From Acidobacteriota bacterium (lineage in GTDB: Bacteria; Acidobacteriota; Terriglobia; Terriglobales; SCQP01), in assembly GCA_021818955.1 (NCBI GenBank), contig JAKASR010000002.1:107659-171658 (forward strand): a stretch of DNA of 64,000 nucleotides, read 5' to 3'. How positions within the stretch are numbered: position 1 is the first letter of the stretch; each line of letters begins with the position of its first letter. The notes beneath the pieces were generated by a model that worked only from the letters and a program-made list of their open reading frames with translations, had not been told where the DNA came from and did no database searches. Below are positions 1-9,197 of this stretch, piece by piece. The position numbers and the translations under genes are program-made.

Positions 1-325
1 GGCGGGCATGATAGAGCGGCTCCAGGTGGTTGAGCAGAGGATCCCTTGCCATCTGCGCCAGGACATCCCCGCGCAAGTCGAGATGCACTTGAAAATGGTC
101 GCGCAGAAAATCGGAAAGCACCCGCAAACATGGCGAGCTTTGCTTTTCCAAAAACGCCAGCAGCGCGCAAATACCGCGGGATTGCAACACCGAGCCGGCG
201 GCGACAAAGAAGCCTTTATCACTATCCTGATAGGCCTGACAAAAAAGGCGACCATATTTCGCCGCAAACAAATCAAGATTGAAGCCAAGCTGGGCCGTGG
301 CCAAAGGGGTTGGGATCGCAGCCAT
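1..325 (-). CDS. cmr5: Type III CRISPR-Cas small subunit (Cas11, Cmr5-like); 5' part only, gene runs off the left edge
   Basis: Absent from the ORF track because no stop lies in the window. Reverse-strand ATG at 323-325 is preceded by GAGGAG (about 335-340). The frame is open to position 1 (108 codons: MAAIPTPLATAQLGFNLDLFAAKYGRLF...SVLQSRGICALLAFLEKQ...). GICALLAFLEKQ resembles the Cmr5 'GL..alaFl..K' segment. Its position after the Cmr4-like gene fits III-C gene order. Confidence 0.5.
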   Translation of the reverse strand, partial: MAAIPTPLATAQLGFNLDLFAAKYGRLFCQAYQDSDKGFFVAAGSVLQSRGICALLAFLEKQSSPCLRVLSDFLRDHFQVHLDLRGDVLAQMARDPLLNHLEPLYHAR

Positions 326-356: not shown

Positions 357-1346
357 CTATGATTGAATCCACACGCGGCCTAAGCCTCGGGTATTCATGC
401 CGCCAAGGCCAAGATATTGCATTAAGCTAATTCCGCGATTCATCACGTCGCGCAAAGCCGTCATCTCCATCGGCGCTCTTGACCCATTGCTGCCAATGGT
501 AGCGTTGAAAATAGCCGGATTATTATAGACGGCATCGAACCAAAGCAGACTCGAGCGCGGGATAGCTTCATAAGTAAATAATGCGCCGTCTTCGGCCGCC
601 CCGGTTTCCGGCTTAATCGAGACCAGGGTGCGGACTTCCAGATTGTCATCCACCAGGCGCTTAAACATAGCATTGCCGACCAGCACGCATTGCTGAACTT
701 TGTTGAGCAACACAGAAGGAATCGGCTGTAGTTCAGACACCCGATCATCCGCATGCCGCGAGGGAAACCGCCATTGCGCCAGATCGGAATCCTGCAAGCC
801 ATCTAATTTATTTAAATATAGCCAGCCGAAATCCAGTTGCGGTTGAGTGAAGTTGCCTTTTAAAACAATGAAATTTCCATCTTCGATTGCGGGCAAGCCC
901 GACGACACGCCAGCCATTTCTGCAGGCAAGCCCGACGATATGCCAGCCGCCTCAAGCTGCTGTGGACAAGTAATCCAGACCGGCCCGCGAGTCGTCGCGA
1001 TGGGAAAGAGCAACAGGTGGGCGGTAAAGAGTTGTACTAATCCCTGGCGGCTCCCGGATGAGCCTTTGGCCCAGCCAAATGCATGGCAGACGGGGCAATC
1101 GCCACAATGAGACTGGCCTTCCGCCCCCCCCTTCCCGCTGCACTGCGGACGATCCATGCTCAGTGCCGCATAAGCCCGGGTGACACCGCTGAGGCTGGTG
1201 CCGGGGATCACCGGCAGATTCGTGCCAGACTCGCGCAAAACAGGCAAATCAATGCGGCCAATTTTTTGCTGGCCGGCGCCGACATGAAGCGGGTCGAGAG
1301 CGAACATCCAATAGCGGACTTGTTCGAAAATTCTTGGATCAGGCAT
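357..1346 (-). CDS. cmr4: Type III RAMP backbone subunit (Cas7 family, Cmr4-like)
   Basis: IGRIDLPVLRESGTNLPVIPGTSLSGVTRAY matches the Cmr4/Csm3 'iD.P..Re..t..P.ipGSSlKG.lR' pattern. The candidate catalytic Asp33 lies at nt 1248-1250. There is a Cys-rich insert (HCGDCPVCHAFG) and a C-terminal G-rich loop (GLGGMNTRGLG). Confidence 0.75.
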   Translation of the reverse strand: MPDPRIFEQVRYWMFALDPLHVGAGQQKIGRIDLPVLRESGTNLPVIPGTSLSGVTRAYAALSMDRPQCSGKGGAEGQSHCGDCPVCHAFGWAKGSSGSRQGLVQLFTAHLLLFPIATTRGPVWITCPQQLEAAGISSGLPAEMAGVSSGLPAIEDGNFIVLKGNFTQPQLDFGWLYLNKLDGLQDSDLAQWRFPSRHADDRVSELQPIPSVLLNKVQQCVLVGNAMFKRLVDDNLEVRTLVSIKPETGAAEDGALFTYEAIPRSSLLWFDAVYNNPAIFNATIGSNGSRAPMEMTALRDVMNRGISLMQYLGLGGMNTRGLGRVWIQS

Positions 1347-1347
1347 T

Positions 1348-4300
1348 TCAAGCTCCTGAGCGAGCGACGGGTTGGCCTGCCTCGTCGACGCGGGCTAAAG
1401 TAGTCTTGGAAGCAGAGGCACGATCCTCTTCCGGCGGATTCTGGTGAAATAAGGCATAGGCTTCAAAAATCGAGCCATCACAACAGCGATCCAATAAAAA
1501 AGCCCGCTGCGCAGCTGTTAGGGCAGCGGCATGATATTCGATTTGCTGACGCGCTAGCTCACGCCATTCAATATGCCCTGGTGTCTCGGCGGCAGGCGCG
1601 GGATAAGGCAGCCCGATGCGCCAAGTACGAATTTTCTCGGCCAGTAAATCAATCAGGGAATGGCGCACCGATTCGGACGGAATACCGGCCGCCAGCAAAT
1701 CGCGTATCTCGATTAAGTGGGACATTAGGAGTTCAAGCCGTATCGGCCGAACCTGCTGATCATTCCAGGCATAGCTGGGTCGATGCCCATGCTCCGCCAC
1801 CTGCAAGGCAAAGCGCCGGGTGGAGCTATCGAGATATTCATAGTCGTAGGCGCAATCGGCGGCGATGATGCGCATACCCGGGCGAAGATCGCGCAAATGC
1901 AGTACACATAATCTCCCCAGAGAGTCCGGCATGGCATGGTGCCGATCATCCTCATTTAAAGATTCCTCGGAGACAATGAAATACGGATGATAGCTATCAT
2001 CACGACCATCACCGAGGTAGGCAGGCACCCGCCAATGTAGATCGCCCGCCAAATGCAAATCGGTATATCCATTGCCCGCATTGGTCGGCTGTTGACAAAG
2101 CTTATACGATCCCGACATATTATGACGGCTTTGAAAGGCTAGAAGCATGCGGCGGGCAGCGTCGAGCGCAATGTACATGGGAAAGCGAGGCTGAAAAAAC
2201 AAGTTGCCGATCGAAAAGGAGAGGCGGCCCGACACCTTGCCGAAACGGCGTTGAAATTCGGCGGTAATACGTCCGCTTAACTCCACTGCGCGGGCGGCGG
2301 GCACCAAGGCAATAAAGATTTCCGGCGTGGCCAGAATTTCACGATAAGGATAATAGTCGCGCGCAGTCGGATTGCCACTTAATGGAATCGATTCAAGACG
2401 CAGCGGCTCGCCCGAATCCGCATCACATATCCGGGTAAGTGACTTACCAATGAAAGCATCCGTCGACGCTTGATTAATCAATTCAATCCGATTATTTTCA
2501 TCGTCCCAGACGAACTCGACCGGCTGATCGGCAATGAAAGCCTTATAGACCGCATTGGGGGCCAAGACTTTTTCCAGCGCGAGATGGCTTTCAAGTATGA
2601 ACCCCCAACGTTGCATGCGCGGCAAATATTTCCTCAGCAACGGCGTCGAATCGGATCCTGATTGCGTATTTGGTGAGGTCAGGGAACTAAAATATTCCTG
2701 AGTGGTACGCCAGACATCGAGCACGGTGGAAGGGGTGGGAGATTTGGCTGTAATCAGATTGATTAACTGAGATAAACGCACGGGCGTGTCGGCGATTTGC
2801 CCCGCCAATTCGCGTAATTCTGAAACCTTCGCCGCAGAAGGCGCAAATTCACCATGATGGTTTTCCAGAGGCCATGCCTGGCGAGGATCTTTCGGGGTTT
2901 GATTGAAGCGGCCCCCAGGCCAAAATTGGCGATAGAAGCAGATCACGGCACTTGCGAGTTTAAGTTCTTCCTGATCCGCGGTGTCGGCAAAAGCTTTCAA
3001 GCAGACTGCGACTTCCTGGCGAAGCCGCTCGGCATCATAATTTGACCAATCCTGACCCCGTGCGGTTTCCAAATACTGCTTTGACTTCAGTTCATCTGCT
3101 TTAAATAGTTGGGTGTTTCCTAAATCAACCGCCTGGCGCGAAAGCCCGCGCGGTTCGGTAACATACAAAGTACGTATCCGACTGCCATCGAGCCATGGAT
3201 CTAATCCGATGCGGGCCACCAGCAATGCGACATCCCGGCCACGGGCAATTTCATTAATAAAAAGCGTGGCGGCGTCGGCTTGACGAAGCTGCGAAGCTCC
3301 CCGACTGCGCCGGCGGGCGCATATTTCACAACGTTTATCCGATCGCGCTCGCGGATACGTGCGCAACCGGCAGATCGGACAAATCTCCTGATCCAAGATA
3401 GACGGCAAATAGTGTTGAAACGGTTCCAGTCGGCCATCGGCGACGATACGGCCATCGGCATGAATGGGAAATCCGAATTCCTGGCGAAGTTTATTCAACA
3501 CGAAAACGATATCGGTAATATCCCGGGTACCATGTCCGAGCGAGACAAAGCGGGGCCACAATTCGCCCTTCGAGATTATCAACGAGCCATCCAATATTTC
3601 TCGACCGATTATTTCCAACCAGTGCTGATAAGCTTCCCCGATGGAATTGGAATCCATCTTTTCCGGAATTAAAAACAAGATGCAATTATCATCTTCGTAG
3701 ATTGCATTGCCTAGCGCATATATGAATTCGATTTTTTCTCTCGCCGCATGGCGCACCTGGCGAAGCAGGTCGCGGCGGGTAGTGAGGTCGGCAATTTTTT
3801 GGCCGCGCTGAATAAAGCGCACCGCATCCCAGCCCAGTCCCCAGATAGTAAATCGCGCGGATTGAAACACATTGTGTTCCTCCAATTTTTCGGCTGTTAT
3901 GCCAGAATGATATAGTAAATACCACGCTTGAAATACTTTAGTAATGGTGGTTACAGCATAGACATGCTCGAATAGCGAGGTATCATTGCCGGGTCGCGTG
4001 GTATCGCTACAGGCAGGCTTATATTGATCTTCGAGCAACTTCAATAGCCGCCGGCGCGGGGCAGGGTCTTTATCGGGTGGACGTAGCCAACAGGTCTTGA
4101 TCAAATCCTCGCTCGAAAGAGCCGCATATAACTGCTCGCGGTTTGTTTCAAGATTATCATCGCTGATCTGACTTTCATAACCGAATACATTGGAGCGATA
4201 AAAGGAACGCAGAATTTCATTTTCTTGCGGAGGTTTGCTATGATCGCATTGCTCGCCGGCAGGCAAGGGATTATTACGATCAATAGCCGAATCGAGAGCA

Positions 4301-4656
4301 TCGGCCGCCTTTAATGCTTGCTCATAAACGATATGGGGGCTGGGTGCGACATGAGAGGACATTACTCTTTTCGGCGAAAATCTCTCACTGCAACCTATGG
4401 CGAAGGTGATTTCCTGGCTCATTTGCTCCAGCAGAATAGAATATTTATTTTTAAATTCCGGCGTTTCATGTTGATCGAGGAAATCATGATCGTGCGGGTC
4501 TTTATTATAAGCGTCAGGATTAGAATCGGCATACCAAGTGCGGCGATATTTCAGGAAGGCCATGCTTAATTTACCCATATCATGGAATAACGAGCAAAGC
4601 TCACTTCTCAATAACCAATCACGATTATCGCTATTTCGTAATTCCGTTACGCCCAT
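1348..4656 (-). CDS. cas10: Cas10 large subunit, HD motif present, cyclase GGDD motif absent
   Basis: 1102 aa. HD motif LCSLFHDMGK (H25-D26, nt 4579-4584). Palm-1-like WGLGWDAVRFIQ. Zn finger CPICR...CEIC. Palm-2-like block LSFSIGNLFFQPRFPMYIALDAARRML. No GGDD or GGDE anywhere; the expected position reads ILATPEIFIALVP. Confidence 0.8.
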   Translation of the reverse strand: MGVTELRNSDNRDWLLRSELCSLFHDMGKLSMAFLKYRRTWYADSNPDAYNKDPHDHDFLDQHETPEFKNKYSILLEQMSQEITFAIGCSERFSPKRVMSSHVAPSPHIVYEQALKAADALDSAIDRNNPLPAGEQCDHSKPPQENEILRSFYRSNVFGYESQISDDNLETNREQLYAALSSEDLIKTCWLRPPDKDPAPRRRLLKLLEDQYKPACSDTTRPGNDTSLFEHVYAVTTITKVFQAWYLLYHSGITAEKLEEHNVFQSARFTIWGLGWDAVRFIQRGQKIADLTTRRDLLRQVRHAAREKIEFIYALGNAIYEDDNCILFLIPEKMDSNSIGEAYQHWLEIIGREILDGSLIISKGELWPRFVSLGHGTRDITDIVFVLNKLRQEFGFPIHADGRIVADGRLEPFQHYLPSILDQEICPICRLRTYPRARSDKRCEICARRRSRGASQLRQADAATLFINEIARGRDVALLVARIGLDPWLDGSRIRTLYVTEPRGLSRQAVDLGNTQLFKADELKSKQYLETARGQDWSNYDAERLRQEVAVCLKAFADTADQEELKLASAVICFYRQFWPGGRFNQTPKDPRQAWPLENHHGEFAPSAAKVSELRELAGQIADTPVRLSQLINLITAKSPTPSTVLDVWRTTQEYFSSLTSPNTQSGSDSTPLLRKYLPRMQRWGFILESHLALEKVLAPNAVYKAFIADQPVEFVWDDENNRIELINQASTDAFIGKSLTRICDADSGEPLRLESIPLSGNPTARDYYPYREILATPEIFIALVPAARAVELSGRITAEFQRRFGKVSGRLSFSIGNLFFQPRFPMYIALDAARRMLLAFQSRHNMSGSYKLCQQPTNAGNGYTDLHLAGDLHWRVPAYLGDGRDDSYHPYFIVSEESLNEDDRHHAMPDSLGRLCVLHLRDLRPGMRIIAADCAYDYEYLDSSTRRFALQVAEHGHRPSYAWNDQQVRPIRLELLMSHLIEIRDLLAAGIPSESVRHSLIDLLAEKIRTWRIGLPYPAPAAETPGHIEWRELARQQIEYHAAALTAAQRAFLLDRCCDGSIFEAYALFHQNPPEEDRASASKTTLARVDEAGQPVARSGA

Positions 4657-5423
4657 GGCTGCGCGCCTTCAATCCGCGCCCTAAGCTCCGATAATTTATC
4701 GAGATTTTGCAAATTATAAGAGACATGGCGATTGTACAGGCGAGAATTCAAGATCTGATTTCGAGCCAAGCCGAAACCTTTCAGGGTTTTCGCGCCAATT
4801 CCATGAATTGTGAATAGAAGCTGGAGCCAATCGCAAACGAGTGGAAATAGCAATCGAGCTTGTTCTACGCCTTGAGCCTCTCCACGCCCCAAATAGAGCA
4901 CAGAAAATGTTGCCGATTGTCCCGCGCGAACTACATGCGGCGAAACGGGAACCGTACCTTTGCGTGCGCGGCGATTGTGCGGGTTAAAGACTACATGGGA
5001 GTTAGTTTCGTTAAAAAAAGAAGGAAAGAAATGCAACCGGCCTTCCGATTTACTCTCTTTATCCGGTCCAAACGCTTCAATGACAGGTTCGCCGGGATTA
5101 ATCAGATTGGCGACATAACGTAGTCGGCCTTTCCAAGTGGAAGGACGCACCCAAGGACGGCGGTAAACCCATTCCCGGGCAATTGTCTGCGGGCTTGCCG
5201 CCACGACTTCGTCGCCTTTGGATAAATAGGGGGAAATCAAGGTGAATTGAAACTGCAAAAACAATGTTCCGGCAGGAAAATAACGGAAATGATTGGCGAT
5301 TGGTGAAGGTATAAAACTATCGCAGGAGGCGGTCTGCAGCGCATCTTCGCATGTCCGGTTAACCGCGTGCCATGCGGCGCCTTGTTGCAATTGCCGCAAA
5401 GAAGGATAAACTTCTAAACTCAA
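4647..5423 (-). CDS. cmr6: Type III RAMP protein (Cas7 family, Cmr6-like)
   Basis: RPSTWKGRLRY (RAMP 'S.KG.lR' motif). FGPDKESKSEGRLHFFPSFF (Cmr6-like 'FG....G.l.F.d'). G-rich loop IHGIGAKTLKGFGLAR. The stop overlaps the cas10 start by 10 nt. Confidence 0.65.
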   Translation of the reverse strand: MSLEVYPSLRQLQQGAAWHAVNRTCEDALQTASCDSFIPSPIANHFRYFPAGTLFLQFQFTLISPYLSKGDEVVAASPQTIAREWVYRRPWVRPSTWKGRLRYVANLINPGEPVIEAFGPDKESKSEGRLHFFPSFFNETNSHVVFNPHNRRARKGTVPVSPHVVRAGQSATFSVLYLGRGEAQGVEQARLLFPLVCDWLQLLFTIHGIGAKTLKGFGLARNQILNSRLYNRHVSYNLQNLDKLSELRARIEGAQPWA

Positions 5424-6463
5424 GCGCCGCCTCCTGCAGCCAGCGCAAGCGCCGGCTGAATTCGTATAAACGGTTGATTGTCAGGTAAATATTGCTTACG
5501 AATGCCAGCGGCATTTAACCAATCAGGAATTTGACTTAAAAAGCCAGGGTCGAGCACATAACCCCAGGTGCGGCCCGCAGGACGGCCATTTATCGCTGCT
5601 GGAAGTGTAAAAGAAAAAAGACGCTTGCTTTGAATATCTCGGCTGCCGCGGACATGCGCGCGCAATGGATCAAAGCCATCGTTAAATTCTTTAATCGAGA
5701 ACATAGAAGGCCAAGGCATGGCATCCAATCCTAAAAGGTGGTTAAACGAGCCAATTTCCGGATGCGACTCATACAAGGTCACACCTGGCAGAAAGAAGAA
5801 ATAATCTATTCGAGGTAAATCAGGCGTTTCATTGGGTTGTTTTTTTTGCCGGTGTTGCATTTCAACAAGAAAGCGGGTTTTCCATACGTTCACTGGCTCA
5901 TCGTCGGGCATGGCCCCTTGCATTCCGAGTAGTTGAATTAATCCGTAATCACGATGGCATTCATTACCGGCAGCATTTCCTGGCACTGGTTTTAAAGTGG
6001 TCTTACCGCCTAAGGAAGCATAAGTACAAATAATATGAAGGATCGTTGCGAGTAAATGCTGTTGTGCGGAGCGTAATGGCGGCTGCGAGTGTAGAAAACT
6101 AAATTCTAACCAGAATATTTGACCTGCATGAAGTGGTTCAATGCGAATTTCAGAGCGATCCGGTTGTCCATTGAGATCTTTCCAGGCCCGGATACTGAAA
6201 CGAGCCGCAGCGGGAAGTGGGGCATTTCTTTGTGATTGACCACTACCTACGCCCCCGAAGAGTTGGCAGATGAAGCATGGGTCTATATTCGAACAACGCA
6301 AACCAGAATCGGTCGGATCGCAGGCGCGGACGTCGAAAGCACGCACATAGGCCTCAGCCCACCAGCGAATGCTTCCCAGCAAGCTAGTCATTTGAAGCCG
6401 GGAGTTTTGGCGGTGCTCATCGCCCGTCCAAATTTCGCTCAAAGCTTGTAATTTAAAGATCAT
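5420..6463 (-). CDS. cmr1: Type III RAMP protein (Cas7 family, Cmr1-like)
   Basis: LLGSIRWWAEAYVRA (Cmr1 'KGalRfWfRal'-like). CFICQLFGG. G-rich loop ASLGGKTTLK. There are 4-nt overlaps with both the upstream and downstream genes. Confidence 0.6.
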   Translation of the reverse strand: MIFKLQALSEIWTGDEHRQNSRLQMTSLLGSIRWWAEAYVRAFDVRACDPTDSGLRCSNIDPCFICQLFGGVGSGQSQRNAPLPAAARFSIRAWKDLNGQPDRSEIRIEPLHAGQIFWLEFSFLHSQPPLRSAQQHLLATILHIICTYASLGGKTTLKPVPGNAAGNECHRDYGLIQLLGMQGAMPDDEPVNVWKTRFLVEMQHRQKKQPNETPDLPRIDYFFFLPGVTLYESHPEIGSFNHLLGLDAMPWPSMFSIKEFNDGFDPLRAHVRGSRDIQSKRLFSFTLPAAINGRPAGRTWGYVLDPGFLSQIPDWLNAAGIRKQYLPDNQPFIRIQPALALAAGGGA

Positions 6464-7245
6464 GCATGCGCCCCGCGTTTTTTCGCGAGAAAAGTTTCAG
6501 CATCCTCGCTGAACCGATCATCATGCCAGAGCCTATCGAATTCCTCCAAGAAATGTCGCAGTAAAGGATTATGATGGTGGCCACGTTTGAGGATTAGCAC
6601 CGGGTCCCTTAATCCAGAACGCCCGCGCAACAGATAGCCGATGAAGCCTTCCCGATCGTCCACATAGTGCGCCCAGTAGCGGGCGTATTCGCGATAGAAA
6701 CGAACCTTCAATTCCAATTTCCCCCGCATCCCCAGATATGATTCGGCCGTGCTGTTGATTCTGCGGATTTCGGCGCTGACTTCTTCGTTGTTAGGCTCAC
6801 GCCCAAGCTCATGCTTTTTGCTTTCACGAACGCAATCTGCTTCAGGCGCCAATAGCAGAAATCTCAACCGGCACCCCGGATTGAATATTCCTTGTTCGAC
6901 GGTATTCCGAAATTCGGACAAAAATGACCCGCCGCTAATGCCGATGTATGCATATTCCTCGACAACATTTCTCCATACCTGAACGTTGTCAACAATTTTG
7001 AAATGCGGCTTGACGTCGGTCACATATCGTATCACTCGGAAAGGACGAAGAATTATTCCCAATATTGCCGCTAACAAAATCGATCCAAGAATCACAAGTT
7101 TAAGAACGAGGGGATGATTCTGTCCTATAAAAACCGTGACCAGCAGGTCTATAAAGACAATGGCATCAACAAAATAGCTAAAGCGTTCGGGGAGTGCTTT
7201 AGGGGTATCCATTAAATTCTCCCGAAACATGGACAATAAAGGCAA
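6460..7245 (-). CDS. Uncharacterised two-TM membrane protein with a C-terminal soluble domain; first gene of the type III operon
   Basis: Hydrophobic helices FSYFVDAIVFIDLLVTVFIG and LVLKLVILGSILLAAILGIIL are followed by about 180 aa of soluble sequence. The stop TGA overlaps the cmr1 ATG (ATGA at 6460-6463). The ORF-track start is a TTG at 7245. An ATG at 7212 (MDTPKALPERF) with GGGAGA 6 nt upstream is a more likely start. Confidence 0.6.
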   Translation of the reverse strand: MPLLSMFRENLMDTPKALPERFSYFVDAIVFIDLLVTVFIGQNHPLVLKLVILGSILLAAILGIILRPFRVIRYVTDVKPHFKIVDNVQVWRNVVEEYAYIGISGGSFLSEFRNTVEQGIFNPGCRLRFLLLAPEADCVRESKKHELGREPNNEEVSAEIRRINSTAESYLGMRGKLELKVRFYREYARYWAHYVDDREGFIGYLLRGRSGLRDPVLILKRGHHHNPLLRHFLEEFDRLWHDDRFSEDAETFLAKKRGAHA

Positions 7246-7278: not shown

Positions 7279-7306
7279 ATTATACTCCAAGAGATTATTA
7301 ATGCAA
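7279..7306 (-). promoter_or_regulatory. Candidate sigma70-type promoter for the type III operon
   Basis: On the minus strand: TTGCAT (7301-7306), 16-nt spacer, TATAAT (7279-7284). It lies about 35-65 nt upstream of the candidate starts. It is bracketed by the inverted 8-mers AGTCGAAT (7263-7270) and ATTCGACT (7330-7337). Confidence 0.4.
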
Positions 7307-7372
7307 ATCCCTTGAGAGCTCCAATCGAAATTCGACTCTTTAACAACCACAATTTAGGTATGCGGGCCGACT

Positions 7373-7615: not shown

Positions 7616-8032
7616 GTGTCCCAGTACGATGAAAAGCCTTTTCCGCTGGATTTTCATGACCTCAAGTTGTTGAGCCATCTGGAAGAAATCCTTTTTGCCT
7701 GGCGGGAAGACGGCTTTCCCGGGATGCGGGATAAAGTTTTGGAATATAAGTGCGAACTCAACGAGTTCAACCGAAAAACACTGGCAAATTATAGTCCTAA
7801 GCCGTCCCCGGCCAAACCGTTAAGAATAATAGGGTGCGTGCAAGGCATGCTGCTGGATGAAGACTTCGATCACCCGCCCGATATGAAATTTTTAGATGCC
7901 TTCCTCCCCTGGCGGCTGAATGAAAAAGACAAAGCCTGGTTGAAAGCGATCGGCATCGAGCCGCCCGACTGTTTAGGGCAAGCGGAAAACGGCGGGAAGC
8001 AGCCTCCCGATAACGGAAGCGCGGAAGGATAG
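7616..8032 (+). CDS. Hypothetical protein (138 aa)
   Basis: GTG start preceded by AGGAG. Intermediate GC. Lies 31 nt upstream of the DUF2235 gene. No family recognised. The internal MLLDEDFDHPPDMKFLDAF loosely recalls the 'DFD.PL...F' tail of some small antitoxin-like proteins. Confidence 0.5.
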   Translation: MSQYDEKPFPLDFHDLKLLSHLEEILFAWREDGFPGMRDKVLEYKCELNEFNRKTLANYSPKPSPAKPLRIIGCVQGMLLDEDFDHPPDMKFLDAFLPWRLNEKDKAWLKAIGIEPPDCLGQAENGGKQPPDNGSAEG

Positions 8033-8063: not shown

Positions 8064-9197
8064 ATGAGCAAAAACCTGGTGGTTTGCTGCGACGGCACCG
8101 GCGACCAGTTCGACAACAGCGACACCCATTCCAATGTCATCAAGCTCTGCCGGGCGCTGGTGCAGCGCGACGCGGAGCAGATGGTTTATTACCACCCCGG
8201 GGTAGGGACCATGGGGGCGCCGCTGGCGCGAAACTGGCTGGCGAAGCAATGGACGCGGTTCCAGGGGCTGGCGTTTGGCGCGGGCCTGCTCGACAACGCG
8301 GGCGACGCCTACCGCTATCTGATGGAAAACTATGCCGCCGGCGACCGGATATTTCTATTCGGCTTCAGCCGCGGCGCCTATACGGCGCGGGTGCTGGCGG
8401 CGGTACTGCACATGTACGGCCTGCTGCATCGCGGCAATCAGGGGCAAATTCGCTATCTCTTCCATAGGTTCGCCATGGCCAGCCGCCAGGCGGGGCGGCT
8501 GCAGCCGGAATTCGCGATCGCGGAGGATTTCAAGCAAACGTTTTCACGCGACGTCGCCGTGCACTTTTGCGGGCTGTGGGATACGGTCAGCTCGATCGGC
8601 TGGATTTACGATCCGGTGAAATTCCCCTACACCGCCTGCAACCCGATCGTGCGCTGCGGCCGGCACGCGGTCTCGATTGACGAGCGGCGCTGCTTTTTCC
8701 GGGAGAACCTTTGGGGCGAGCTGCCGGGCCAGGACCTGCTGCAGGCCTGGTTTGCCGGGGTGCATTCGGACGTGGGCGGAAGCTATCCGGAAGCGCAAAG
8801 CGGGCTATCGAAACTGGCGCTGCAATGGATGGCGGAAGAAGCGGCCGGCCGCGGCCTGCTGCTTGACGCCCGGCGCATGGCCTGCATTTTAGGCCGCGGG
8901 ACGGGCTGCGAAAACTACGCGCCGCCCGATTGCCAGGCGCCACTGCATCATTCCCTGCAAGGGTGGTGGTGGCTGCTGGAATGGCTGCCGCACCGCTACT
9001 ACGACCGGCGGGCGCGGCGGCAGCGCTGGCGCATTCCGCGGGGCGCGCGGCGGGTCATTCCGGAAGGCGCCGCCATCCATGCCAGCGCGCTGGCGCGGGC
9101 CGCCGACCCGGCTTGCGATTATGCGCCGCGGCTGCCGCAAGATTTCAGGGTGGCGCGAACACGAAACCTGCCGTCCGGCCCGGCCGTTAAGGCTTGA
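8064..9197 (+). CDS. DUF2235-family alpha/beta hydrolase (Tle1-like phospholipase catalytic domain)
   Basis: Family hallmarks in order: VVCCDGTGDQF, YYHPGVGT, nucleophile elbow GFSRGAYTARVLA, WFAGVHSDVGGSY. No signal peptide is seen. Confidence 0.85.
   Translation: MSKNLVVCCDGTGDQFDNSDTHSNVIKLCRALVQRDAEQMVYYHPGVGTMGAPLARNWLAKQWTRFQGLAFGAGLLDNAGDAYRYLMENYAAGDRIFLFGFSRGAYTARVLAAVLHMYGLLHRGNQGQIRYLFHRFAMASRQAGRLQPEFAIAEDFKQTFSRDVAVHFCGLWDTVSSIGWIYDPVKFPYTACNPIVRCGRHAVSIDERRCFFRENLWGELPGQDLLQAWFAGVHSDVGGSYPEAQSGLSKLALQWMAEEAAGRGLLLDARRMACILGRGTGCENYAPPDCQAPLHHSLQGWWWLLEWLPHRYYDRRARRQRWRIPRGARRVIPEGAAIHASALARAADPACDYAPRLPQDFRVARTRNLPSGPAVKA

Follow-up and report, generated by a model that had tools for sequence, protein, structure and literature searches.

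Membrane proteins are known companions of type III CRISPR systems, and several of them, including Cam1, Csx23 and Cam2, have been described with N-terminal transmembrane (TM) helices and a C-terminal cytoplasmic domain (PMC11229360). Subtype III-C is the least understood of the common type III subtypes, and its Cas10 is unable to make cyclic oligoadenylates (cOA). A 2024 census recorded III-C without cyclase sites and without known effectors (PMC11229360), its polymerase is treated as inactivated (PMC8730458; PMC12669027), and no membrane partner of III-C is named in the 2025 classification (PMC12669027). Here, we present an analysis of a 64,000-nucleotide stretch of DNA (hereafter the window) from an Acidobacteriota bacterium (GenBank assembly GCA_021818955.1, contig JAKASR010000002.1, positions 107,659 to 171,658), in which a gene for a membrane protein with a DUF5919 domain leads a type III-C effector operon on the minus strand. 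As far as sequence comparison and structure prediction can tell, this protein is a dedicated accessory of one III-C (Csx11) clade in which the cyclase motif has been lost and the HD motif kept, and it is apparently undescribed. Our literature search found no paper describing the membrane-protein family, none mentioning DUF5919 (Shmakov et al. 2018 being outside its coverage) and no experimental study of III-C; mentions of 'III-C' in the CoCoNuT paper were set aside, as they refer to a different system. Tentatively, we favour the reading that the protein is a membrane effector gated by contact with the CRISPR complex.

An earlier sequence-only reading of this stretch had delimited an open reading frame at 6460-7245 on the minus strand; the frame exists, but its start is likely at 7212 and not at 7245. 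The ATG at 7212 is most likely the real start, rather than the TTG at 7245, because a GGGAG motif stands 6 nt upstream of it, the N-termini of homologues align to this methionine, and the public gene call agrees, its product (P0001) being 250 residues long and identical to the window protein. All four sequence blocks quoted in the earlier reading were found in the frame. A full HMMER scan of 1.84 billion representatives returned 85 cluster representatives at E ≤ 1e-3, nearly all of 235-290 residues, and we regard the frame as a genuine gene and not a chance one; the full scan was needed, as a word-indexed homologue search was nearly blind to the family (2, then 4 matches). The translational coupling that had been claimed can be seen directly, an ATGA joining the stop of the membrane gene to the start of cmr1 (Table 1), and the same 4-nt overlap recurs between the membrane gene and cmr1 at locus L013 and between cmr3 and the membrane gene at locus L016. 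A promoter had also been claimed at 7279-7306, and a promoter-like TTTGCA-17 nt-TATAAT arrangement was indeed found at 7307-7279; it is a match to the consensus only, with 4 such sites in the region against 1.6 expected.

Downstream of the membrane gene, cmr1, cmr6, cas10c and cmr4 follow on the minus strand without gaps, and the suggestion that the gene leads a III-C effector operon was borne out by profiles, which identify these genes as Cmr1-like, Cmr6, Cas10c/Csx11 and Cmr4. On an identical public contig (L006), the operon carries on with cmr5, cmr3 (PADLOC Cmr3, 1.7e-54), cas6 and a fusion of reverse transcriptase (RT) and cas1. Window and contig together present the gene set and order cmr1-cmr6-cas10-cmr4-cmr5-cmr3, which is the canonical III-C order, and homologues of the window Cas10c carry the NCBI name Csx11; on gene content we assign the operon to type III-C. 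The locus is chromosomal, as judged by the ATP synthase epsilon and beta genes 2-4 kb upstream. No CRISPR array was found within the window, and the array presumably lies beyond its left edge.

The partner of the membrane protein is a Cas10c in which the alignment places ATPE at the GGDD position, while the HD motif is kept (FHDMGKLS, DPHDHD). Throughout the 18 full-length linked Cas10c proteins inspected, the GGDD position reads [AST][ST]P[EQVND] and the HD motif is conserved (LLHDxGKLS, then DPH[DE]). The description of Cas10 as cyclase-dead therefore holds for the window and for all 18, and without GGDD the nucleotide-signalling route looks closed, as had been argued; however, the system is not left without effector activity, since the HD motif is kept and the HD nuclease of Cas10c is probably intact.

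To relate the gene to its genomic setting, we compiled 30 distinct members (<95% identity) from context look-ups and two collection scans, with cas genes mapped by tblastn; this forward sample consists of loci found with patterns derived from the membrane-protein family itself, and most of the loci are metagenomic. Cas neighbours were present in 28 of the 30. Intact III-C effector genes are adjacent in 25, so that the enrichment at type III loci, whose absence had been set as a refuting outcome, is strong; two further members stand on short contigs with only an adjoining RT, one (L008) has a cmr1 fragment only, and two (L017 and L043) have no cas genes nearby. At L008, on a contig of an Acidobacteriaceae metagenome-assembled genome (MAG), the short cmr1-like fragment (1292-1483) comes after the membrane gene and the next 9.7 kb hold no other cas genes, which may reflect a decayed locus or an assembly join. 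In cas loci, the membrane gene without exception reads in the same direction as the effector genes and directly adjoins them, either before cmr1 ('head': the window, P0002, the Acidobacteria MAGs L009 and L010, P0012 and P0031) or after cmr3 and before RT, RT-cas1, cas1-cas2 or cas6 ('tail': for example P0014, P0045 and 26 of 27 metagenomic loci). Its position within the operon shifts among relatives while the III-C linkage is kept, so the head-of-operon placement stressed by the sequence-only reading is true of the window but not general.

The reverse test started from two Csx11 homologues chosen by Cas10c similarity alone (28-29% identity), and both of their loci carry the membrane gene. A Candidatus Kuenenia locus has a 258-residue tail copy (247 bits with the hidden Markov model, HMM), and L052 (also L053) has a 496-residue head copy (L052 4908-6398) that joins the family domain, at residues 8-241, to a helical extension of about 250 residues; neither Pfam nor PADLOC recognises this extension, which may act as a scaffold or as an additional domain for interactions. 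On the Anabaena cylindrica plasmid pANACY.02, a III-C locus that is more distant lacks the membrane gene even by HMM search, and the gene therefore marks a III-C clade and is not a universal III-C component; the reverse association comprises these two samples and the one locus without the gene. The clade is large and spreads over Acidobacteria MAGs and Candidatus Kuenenia, with NCBI-named Csx11 homologues from Deltaproteobacteria, candidate division WS5 and Chloroflexi. Pairwise identities of the membrane protein correlate with those of Cmr3, Cmr4 and Cas10c (Spearman 0.86, 0.87 and 0.82, respectively), the protein diverges about as fast as Cas10c, and the gene has been passed on as part of the effector module. 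A housekeeping gene or chance neighbour was rejected on these two samples and on the 28 relatives with cas neighbours; profile searches, too, match no housekeeping family. CRISPR arrays of 5-26 repeats occur at all five loci tested, and most carry adaptation genes, in keeping with functional systems, whereas most III-C loci are without arrays according to the classification paper (PMC12669027). No III-C loci were found on viral contigs.

The flanks of the gene also bear on a role other than that of an effector, for instance in assembly or stability of the complex, in control of its activity as a brake, or as a link to spacer acquisition by RT-Cas1. Tail-type genes lie exactly between cmr3 and RT or RT-cas1, the gene at L010 and L014 faces cas6 and RT-cas1 across a divergent promoter, and RT-type adaptation genes are present at most loci. 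However, L018/L019, L039 and L021 combine the membrane gene and effector genes with no RT nearby, and the gene is co-directional with and abuts an effector gene, not the adaptation genes, which leaves such a role unlikely.

In the soluble part of the protein, Pfam DUF5919 (PF19319) matches residues 109-233 with 33.5 bits against a gathering cutoff of 23.5 (E = 4.5e-8; profile positions 23-158 of 161), which turns a likeness that had been offered tentatively into a match above a curated cutoff, and 24 of 37 relatives match the same family at E ≤ 1. An AlphaFold2 (AF2) model built from a 37-sequence alignment (pLDDT 92.1, pTM 0.82) consists of two long helices followed by an alpha/beta domain. 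Searched with Foldseek against the PDB, a check that had been proposed earlier, the model retrieved only proteins of the phospholipase D (PLD) fold at probability 1.0 (E 2e-5 to 5e-4), the matches being the TrmBL2 C-terminal domain, mouse Zucchini/PLD6, vaccinia F13, bacterial PLDs, phosphatidylserine synthase (PssA), Nuc and the FAM83 pseudo-PLD; a viral structure library added poxvirus F13-like proteins, a PLD phosphodiesterase and a NucT-like nuclease. Sequence identity to the structural matches is 9-15%, and their TM-scores of 0.34-0.43 on the query are modest partly because the TM hairpin has no counterpart. A profile search of PDB sequences returned no meaningful sequence-level relation to any solved structure, and a threshold as loose as E ≤ 1 still gave no Pfam PLDc match for any of the 37 members. 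Neither PADLOC nor NCBIfam matches the membrane protein, and no source names it, so it is rightly called uncharacterised, and membership of a known defence or Cas family was rejected on the missing PADLOC and NCBIfam matches. Across Pfam, NCBIfam and PADLOC, DUF5919 was the only domain returned, with no CARF, SAVED, Csx23 C-domain, REC-like or CorA sensor; the earlier statement that no CARF or SAVED signature is present agrees with this.

Conservation within the domain argues against catalysis. Among 60 non-redundant relatives, Y89, G91, L119, W180 and W229 are invariant, and R/K171, D/N185, S/T93, P123, G192, G197 and G200 nearly so; the conserved polar and aromatic set consists of Y89, G91, S93, R/K171, Y/H173, W180, Y/H182 and D185. 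The HKD motif, HxK(x)4D(x)6G(G/S)xN, was not found, and no HxK column is conserved in these relatives. The window protein does have a single H-x-K tripeptide (H70-F71-K72), which we judge to lie outside the usual PLD motif position and in which H70 and K72 are not conserved; the earlier statement that there is no HxK thus stands for the family but not to the letter for this protein. Because the motif is missing across the 60 relatives, the domain is most likely non-catalytic, its HKD residues having been lost. An active enzyme, either a membrane-anchored nuclease resembling Zucchini/PLD6 or Nuc or a phospholipase acting in interference, would accord with the fold matches to Zucchini, Nuc, NucT-like proteins and bacterial PLDs, and Zucchini, too, is anchored in the membrane at its N-terminus and works in RNA-guided defence. 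By motif spacing, position 182 would be the best fit for the catalytic histidine, and H182 is invariant in the subfamily of the window protein. However, 34 of the 60 relatives have Y at this position and 24 have H, the lysine position (184) is always V, L, I or F, no other HxK column is conserved, and neither PLDc profiles nor solved PLD sequences are matched. We consider an active PLD enzyme very improbable, and it was rejected as the main explanation for want of a conserved HxK.

The polar and aromatic set, together with a Gly-rich loop before a helix, suggests that a binding site may have been retained, and this bears on a ligand-gated effector, in which the PLD-like pocket would sense a product of the activated III-C complex and drive a TM output, as in Cam1, Csx23 and CorA. 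Candidate ligands would be a non-canonical Cas10c product or RNA/DNA cleavage products with terminal phosphates. The best structural match is a TrmB-family C-terminal domain, which in TrmB is part of the sugar-sensing domain, and DUF5919 elsewhere is, we assume, mostly the C-terminal domain of soluble helix-turn-helix regulators in Actinobacteria, which fits an input domain. The Y89-x-G91-x-S93 loop, R/K171, W180 and Y/H182 are compatible with phosphate and base binding, the radical S-adenosylmethionine (radical-SAM) links described below hint at small-molecule chemistry, and the TM-plus-sensor architecture is that of known cOA effectors (PMC11229360). However, GGDD is absent in every full-length linked Cas10c inspected, the III-C polymerase is regarded as inactivated (PMC8730458; PMC12669027), and the signal needed is not known from III-C. 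The protein also has no CARF, SAVED or other known nucleotide-sensor signature, and cOA effectors are usually peripheral and variable in position, whereas the membrane gene is embedded and coupled like a subunit. On balance, ligand gating seems to us rather unlikely.

Hydropathy and the AF2 model agree on two N-terminal TM helices, separated by a loop of about 6 residues and followed by about 185 soluble residues, where the sequence-only reading had given about 180, and two TM segments were found in 32 of 37 relatives with a simple hydropathy threshold. Over these 32 proteins, the N-terminal tail holds 62 lysines and arginines, the loop 21 and the 15-residue stretch following TM2 113, a distribution which gives an N-in/C-in hairpin with a cytoplasmic soluble domain; the hairpin is thus predicted to hold the protein in the inner membrane while its two termini face the cytoplasm. 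In the head-type subfamily, TM1 has a conserved acidic residue (F-x-D-L) and TM2 starts with a conserved basic residue (L-R/K-W; residues 16, 22 and 38, about 7099-7167), a pattern not seen in tail-type members; the acidic and basic residues could form an intramembrane salt bridge.

The family is also found outside CRISPR loci. Two clear members lie in other defence-like islands; P0033 is near a SIR2-NACHT STAND protein, and at L043 (8415-10714) the family member and the 3' end of a B12-binding radical-SAM gene overlap, in an island that further contains ABC/AbiEii-like ATPases, metallophosphatases, a PUA-like protein and a methylase. The remote relatives P0071 and P0085 have weak, below-cutoff radical-SAM matches in the same polypeptide, and Actinoplanes has remote proteins with two TM segments and DUF5919, without cas genes. 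The copies linked to radical-SAM proteins may represent a second, non-CRISPR use of the module. Taken together, these settings suggest that the module is portable and may serve several defence systems.

We favour a contact-gated membrane effector because the architecture copies that of known membrane effectors, the family occurs in other defence islands and the conserved pocket is kept. The operon arrangement indicates that the gene is co-transcribed with the effector genes, and it is here translationally coupled to them. In the proposed scheme, the PLD-like domain would serve as a docking or sensing module that binds the Cmr-like complex directly, a task for which no Cas10 nucleotide signal is available. 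Binding of target RNA by the complex would cause a change that is relayed to the TM hairpins, which would then oligomerise and perturb the membrane, so that dormancy or abortive infection would complement the action of the HD nuclease. By analogy, this logic would be nearer to that of Csx28-Cas13b or Csx29-Cas7-11 than to that of the cOA-dependent Cam1 or Csx23. The protein could then conceivably be a type III membrane effector subunit that needs no messenger, the first of its kind, with a pseudo-PLD that reads the conformational state of a cyclase-dead Cmr-like complex by contact and turns recognition of target RNA into membrane depolarisation, although we put this forward with low confidence.

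Several observations weigh against this proposal. The TM region is the least conserved part of the protein (17.6% versus 28.9% mean pairwise identity), and the absence of any family-wide polar residue from the TM segments, combined with the short loop, fits a passive anchor as well as a pore. With the HD motif intact, a second effector is not obviously needed, and the more distant Anabaena locus does without the gene. The Gly-rich loop, R/K171 and the aromatic residues could equally form a small-molecule or nucleic-acid pocket, which would lead to ligand gating, and both the binding of the complex and any membrane effect are what we infer. Some of the same features suit a passive tether, in which the pseudo-PLD domain would bind the III-C complex and the hairpin would hold it at the inner membrane face with no damage to the membrane, so as to meet entering phage genomes and early transcripts or to act near RT-Cas1 adaptation. 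Weakly conserved TM segments without conserved polar residues and with a very short loop agree with a tether, the kept HD motif means that interference could rest on Cas10c alone, and the L052 variant adds its helical residues as a scaffold might, while operon position, coupling and co-divergence with the subunits support tether and contact-gated effector equally. For a physical association with the Cmr proteins, the embedding in the operon, the stop/start overlaps and the co-divergence would be indirect signs. However, family members also lie in defence-like islands without cas genes, and others are fused or adjacent to radical-SAM enzymes, settings in which an anchor specific to Cmr would have nothing to hold, and the conserved polar set of R/K171, D185, Y89 and S93 suggests more than a docking surface; a tether is possible, though we would not call it probable.

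Table 1. Positions of the membrane-protein gene, its parts and the adjoining effector genes in the window (AF2, AlphaFold2; all on the minus strand).
Feature	Position	Strand	Description
Membrane-protein gene	6460..7212	-	250 residues; two-TM hairpin and cytoplasmic DUF5919/PLD-like domain; start taken as ATG 7212
In-frame upstream extension to TTG 7245	7213..7245	-	Probably 5' untranslated region; contains GGGAG Shine-Dalgarno motif at 7219-7223
TM helix 1	7126..7182	-	Residues 11-29 by hydropathy scan; AF2 helix 6-29
TM helix 2	7051..7107	-	Residues 36-54 by hydropathy scan; AF2 helix 34-63
Cytoplasmic PLD-like (DUF5919) domain	6502..7023	-	Residues about 64-237
ATGA stop/start overlap, membrane gene/cmr1	6460..6463	-	Stop 6460-6462; cmr1 ATG 6463-6461
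Sigma-70-like promoter candidate	7279..7307	-	TTTGCA, 17 nt, TATAAT; upstream of the operon
cmr1-like RAMP gene	5420..6463	-	347 residues; Pfam RAMPs; PADLOC Cmr1 1.1e-6; TIGR01894 22.9 bits, below cutoff
cmr6	4647..5423	-	258 residues; PADLOC Cmr6 6.4e-32
cas10c/csx11	1348..4656	-	1102 residues; PADLOC Cas10c (CAS-III-C) 1.6e-96; TIGR02682 247.8 bits against a cutoff of 248.95
cmr4	357..1346	-	329 residues; TIGR02580 114.2 bits against a cutoff of 87; PADLOC Cmr4 3.7e-42
cmr5, 5' part	1..325	-	Runs off the window edge; PADLOC III-C Cmr5 0.0026

Additional observations concern the neighbourhood of the operon and of its relatives. Divergent from the cas operon, the window carries a gene for a protein resembling the type VI secretion phospholipase Tle1 (DUF2235; 8064-9197, plus strand; Pfam 3.2e-78), preceded by an open reading frame of 138 residues without a family match (7616-8032, plus strand); both are absent from the related loci with a visible upstream flank (L001, L010 and L014). 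In precomputed annotations, Cas6 of L006 (8491-9552), L014, L049 and L052 has an extra N-terminal AF_1859_N domain (PF27225). Either an RT-Cas1 fusion (L006 9584-11082, L009, L010, L013, L014 and L038) or a separate RT and Cas1, with Cas2 (RT and Cas1 in L015, L022, L024, L027, L029, L049 and L052), is present at nearly all the III-C loci considered here. Tail-type loci carry a conserved frame of about 72 residues between cas10c and cmr4 (L015 5843-6061; also L022-L024, L026-L027, L029-L032, L034-L035, L038 and L040-L042); neither Pfam nor PADLOC matches this frame, and the head-type locus of the window lacks it. At L046 (1466-2249), the membrane gene after cmr3 is split over two overlapping frames, which may be due to a frameshift, a pseudogene or a sequencing error. 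Further, a ThiF/prokaryotic E2 cassette lies beside III-C loci in two unrelated replicons (L001 5872-9301 and L048, an Anabaena plasmid, 4344-6752), of which only one has the membrane gene; the L001 cassette is PRTRC-like (PRTRC_E, Prok_Ub) and the Anabaena cassette adds an MPN/JAB gene.

A conserved, co-evolving membrane protein inside the effector operon offers a testable handle on a signalling-dead type III system and raises the question of whether a CRISPR complex may be coupled to the membrane without an intermediary. If contact gating were true, III-C would gain a route to abortive infection that does not pass through cyclic-nucleotide signalling, and the protein would escape phage measures that destroy or sequester cyclic nucleotides, such as ring nucleases and nucleotide sponges. 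It would also give DUF5919 a first function and provide another case of a PLD fold reused as a non-catalytic module. Membrane proteins associated with CRISPR are a known kind; what we consider new here is the input domain and its occurrence in a subtype that lacks nucleotide signalling.

Compared with known families and systems, the protein resembles DUF5919 members (PF19319) in its score above the curated cutoff and its PLD-like predicted fold, and differs from DUF5919 elsewhere in that the domain is joined to a two-TM hairpin and its gene lies within a cas operon. It shares its fold with the TrmBL2/TrmB C-terminal domain and with DUF1669 of FAM83, which likewise lack the HKD residues, and with Nuc and the N-terminally anchored Zucchini/PLD6, from which it is set apart by the missing conserved HxK and the low identity to PLD-fold matches already given. 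A three-member accessory cluster, C3a152 (Cylst_6373), has been listed as 'Type III-C specific' with no description (Shah et al. 2018, PMC6546367). That it belongs to the same family is doubtful, as the Nostocales III-C plasmid locus inspected (pANACY.02) has no member of the membrane-gene family; tblastn of two family members against 72,556 plasmids, run in search of Cylst_6373, gave no match. Cam1, Csx23, CorA and Cam2/Cam3 are similar in occurring at type III loci and in combining N-terminal TM helices with a C-terminal cytoplasmic domain (PMC11229360). However, these effectors need a Cas10 cyclase product and a CARF, REC-like or other sensor, whereas the Cas10c here has no GGDD, and where the cOA and SAM-AMP effectors have dedicated sensors the window protein has a pseudo-PLD domain without a PADLOC match. 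Csx28 of type VI-B and Csx29 (TPR-CHAT) of type III-E are accessories that work without nucleotide messengers and would be the precedents for the proposed logic. Csx29 is controlled through its direct contact with the effector in the target-bound state. Both accessories belong to other CRISPR types and have no sequence or fold relation to the window protein; the analogy would be a functional one.

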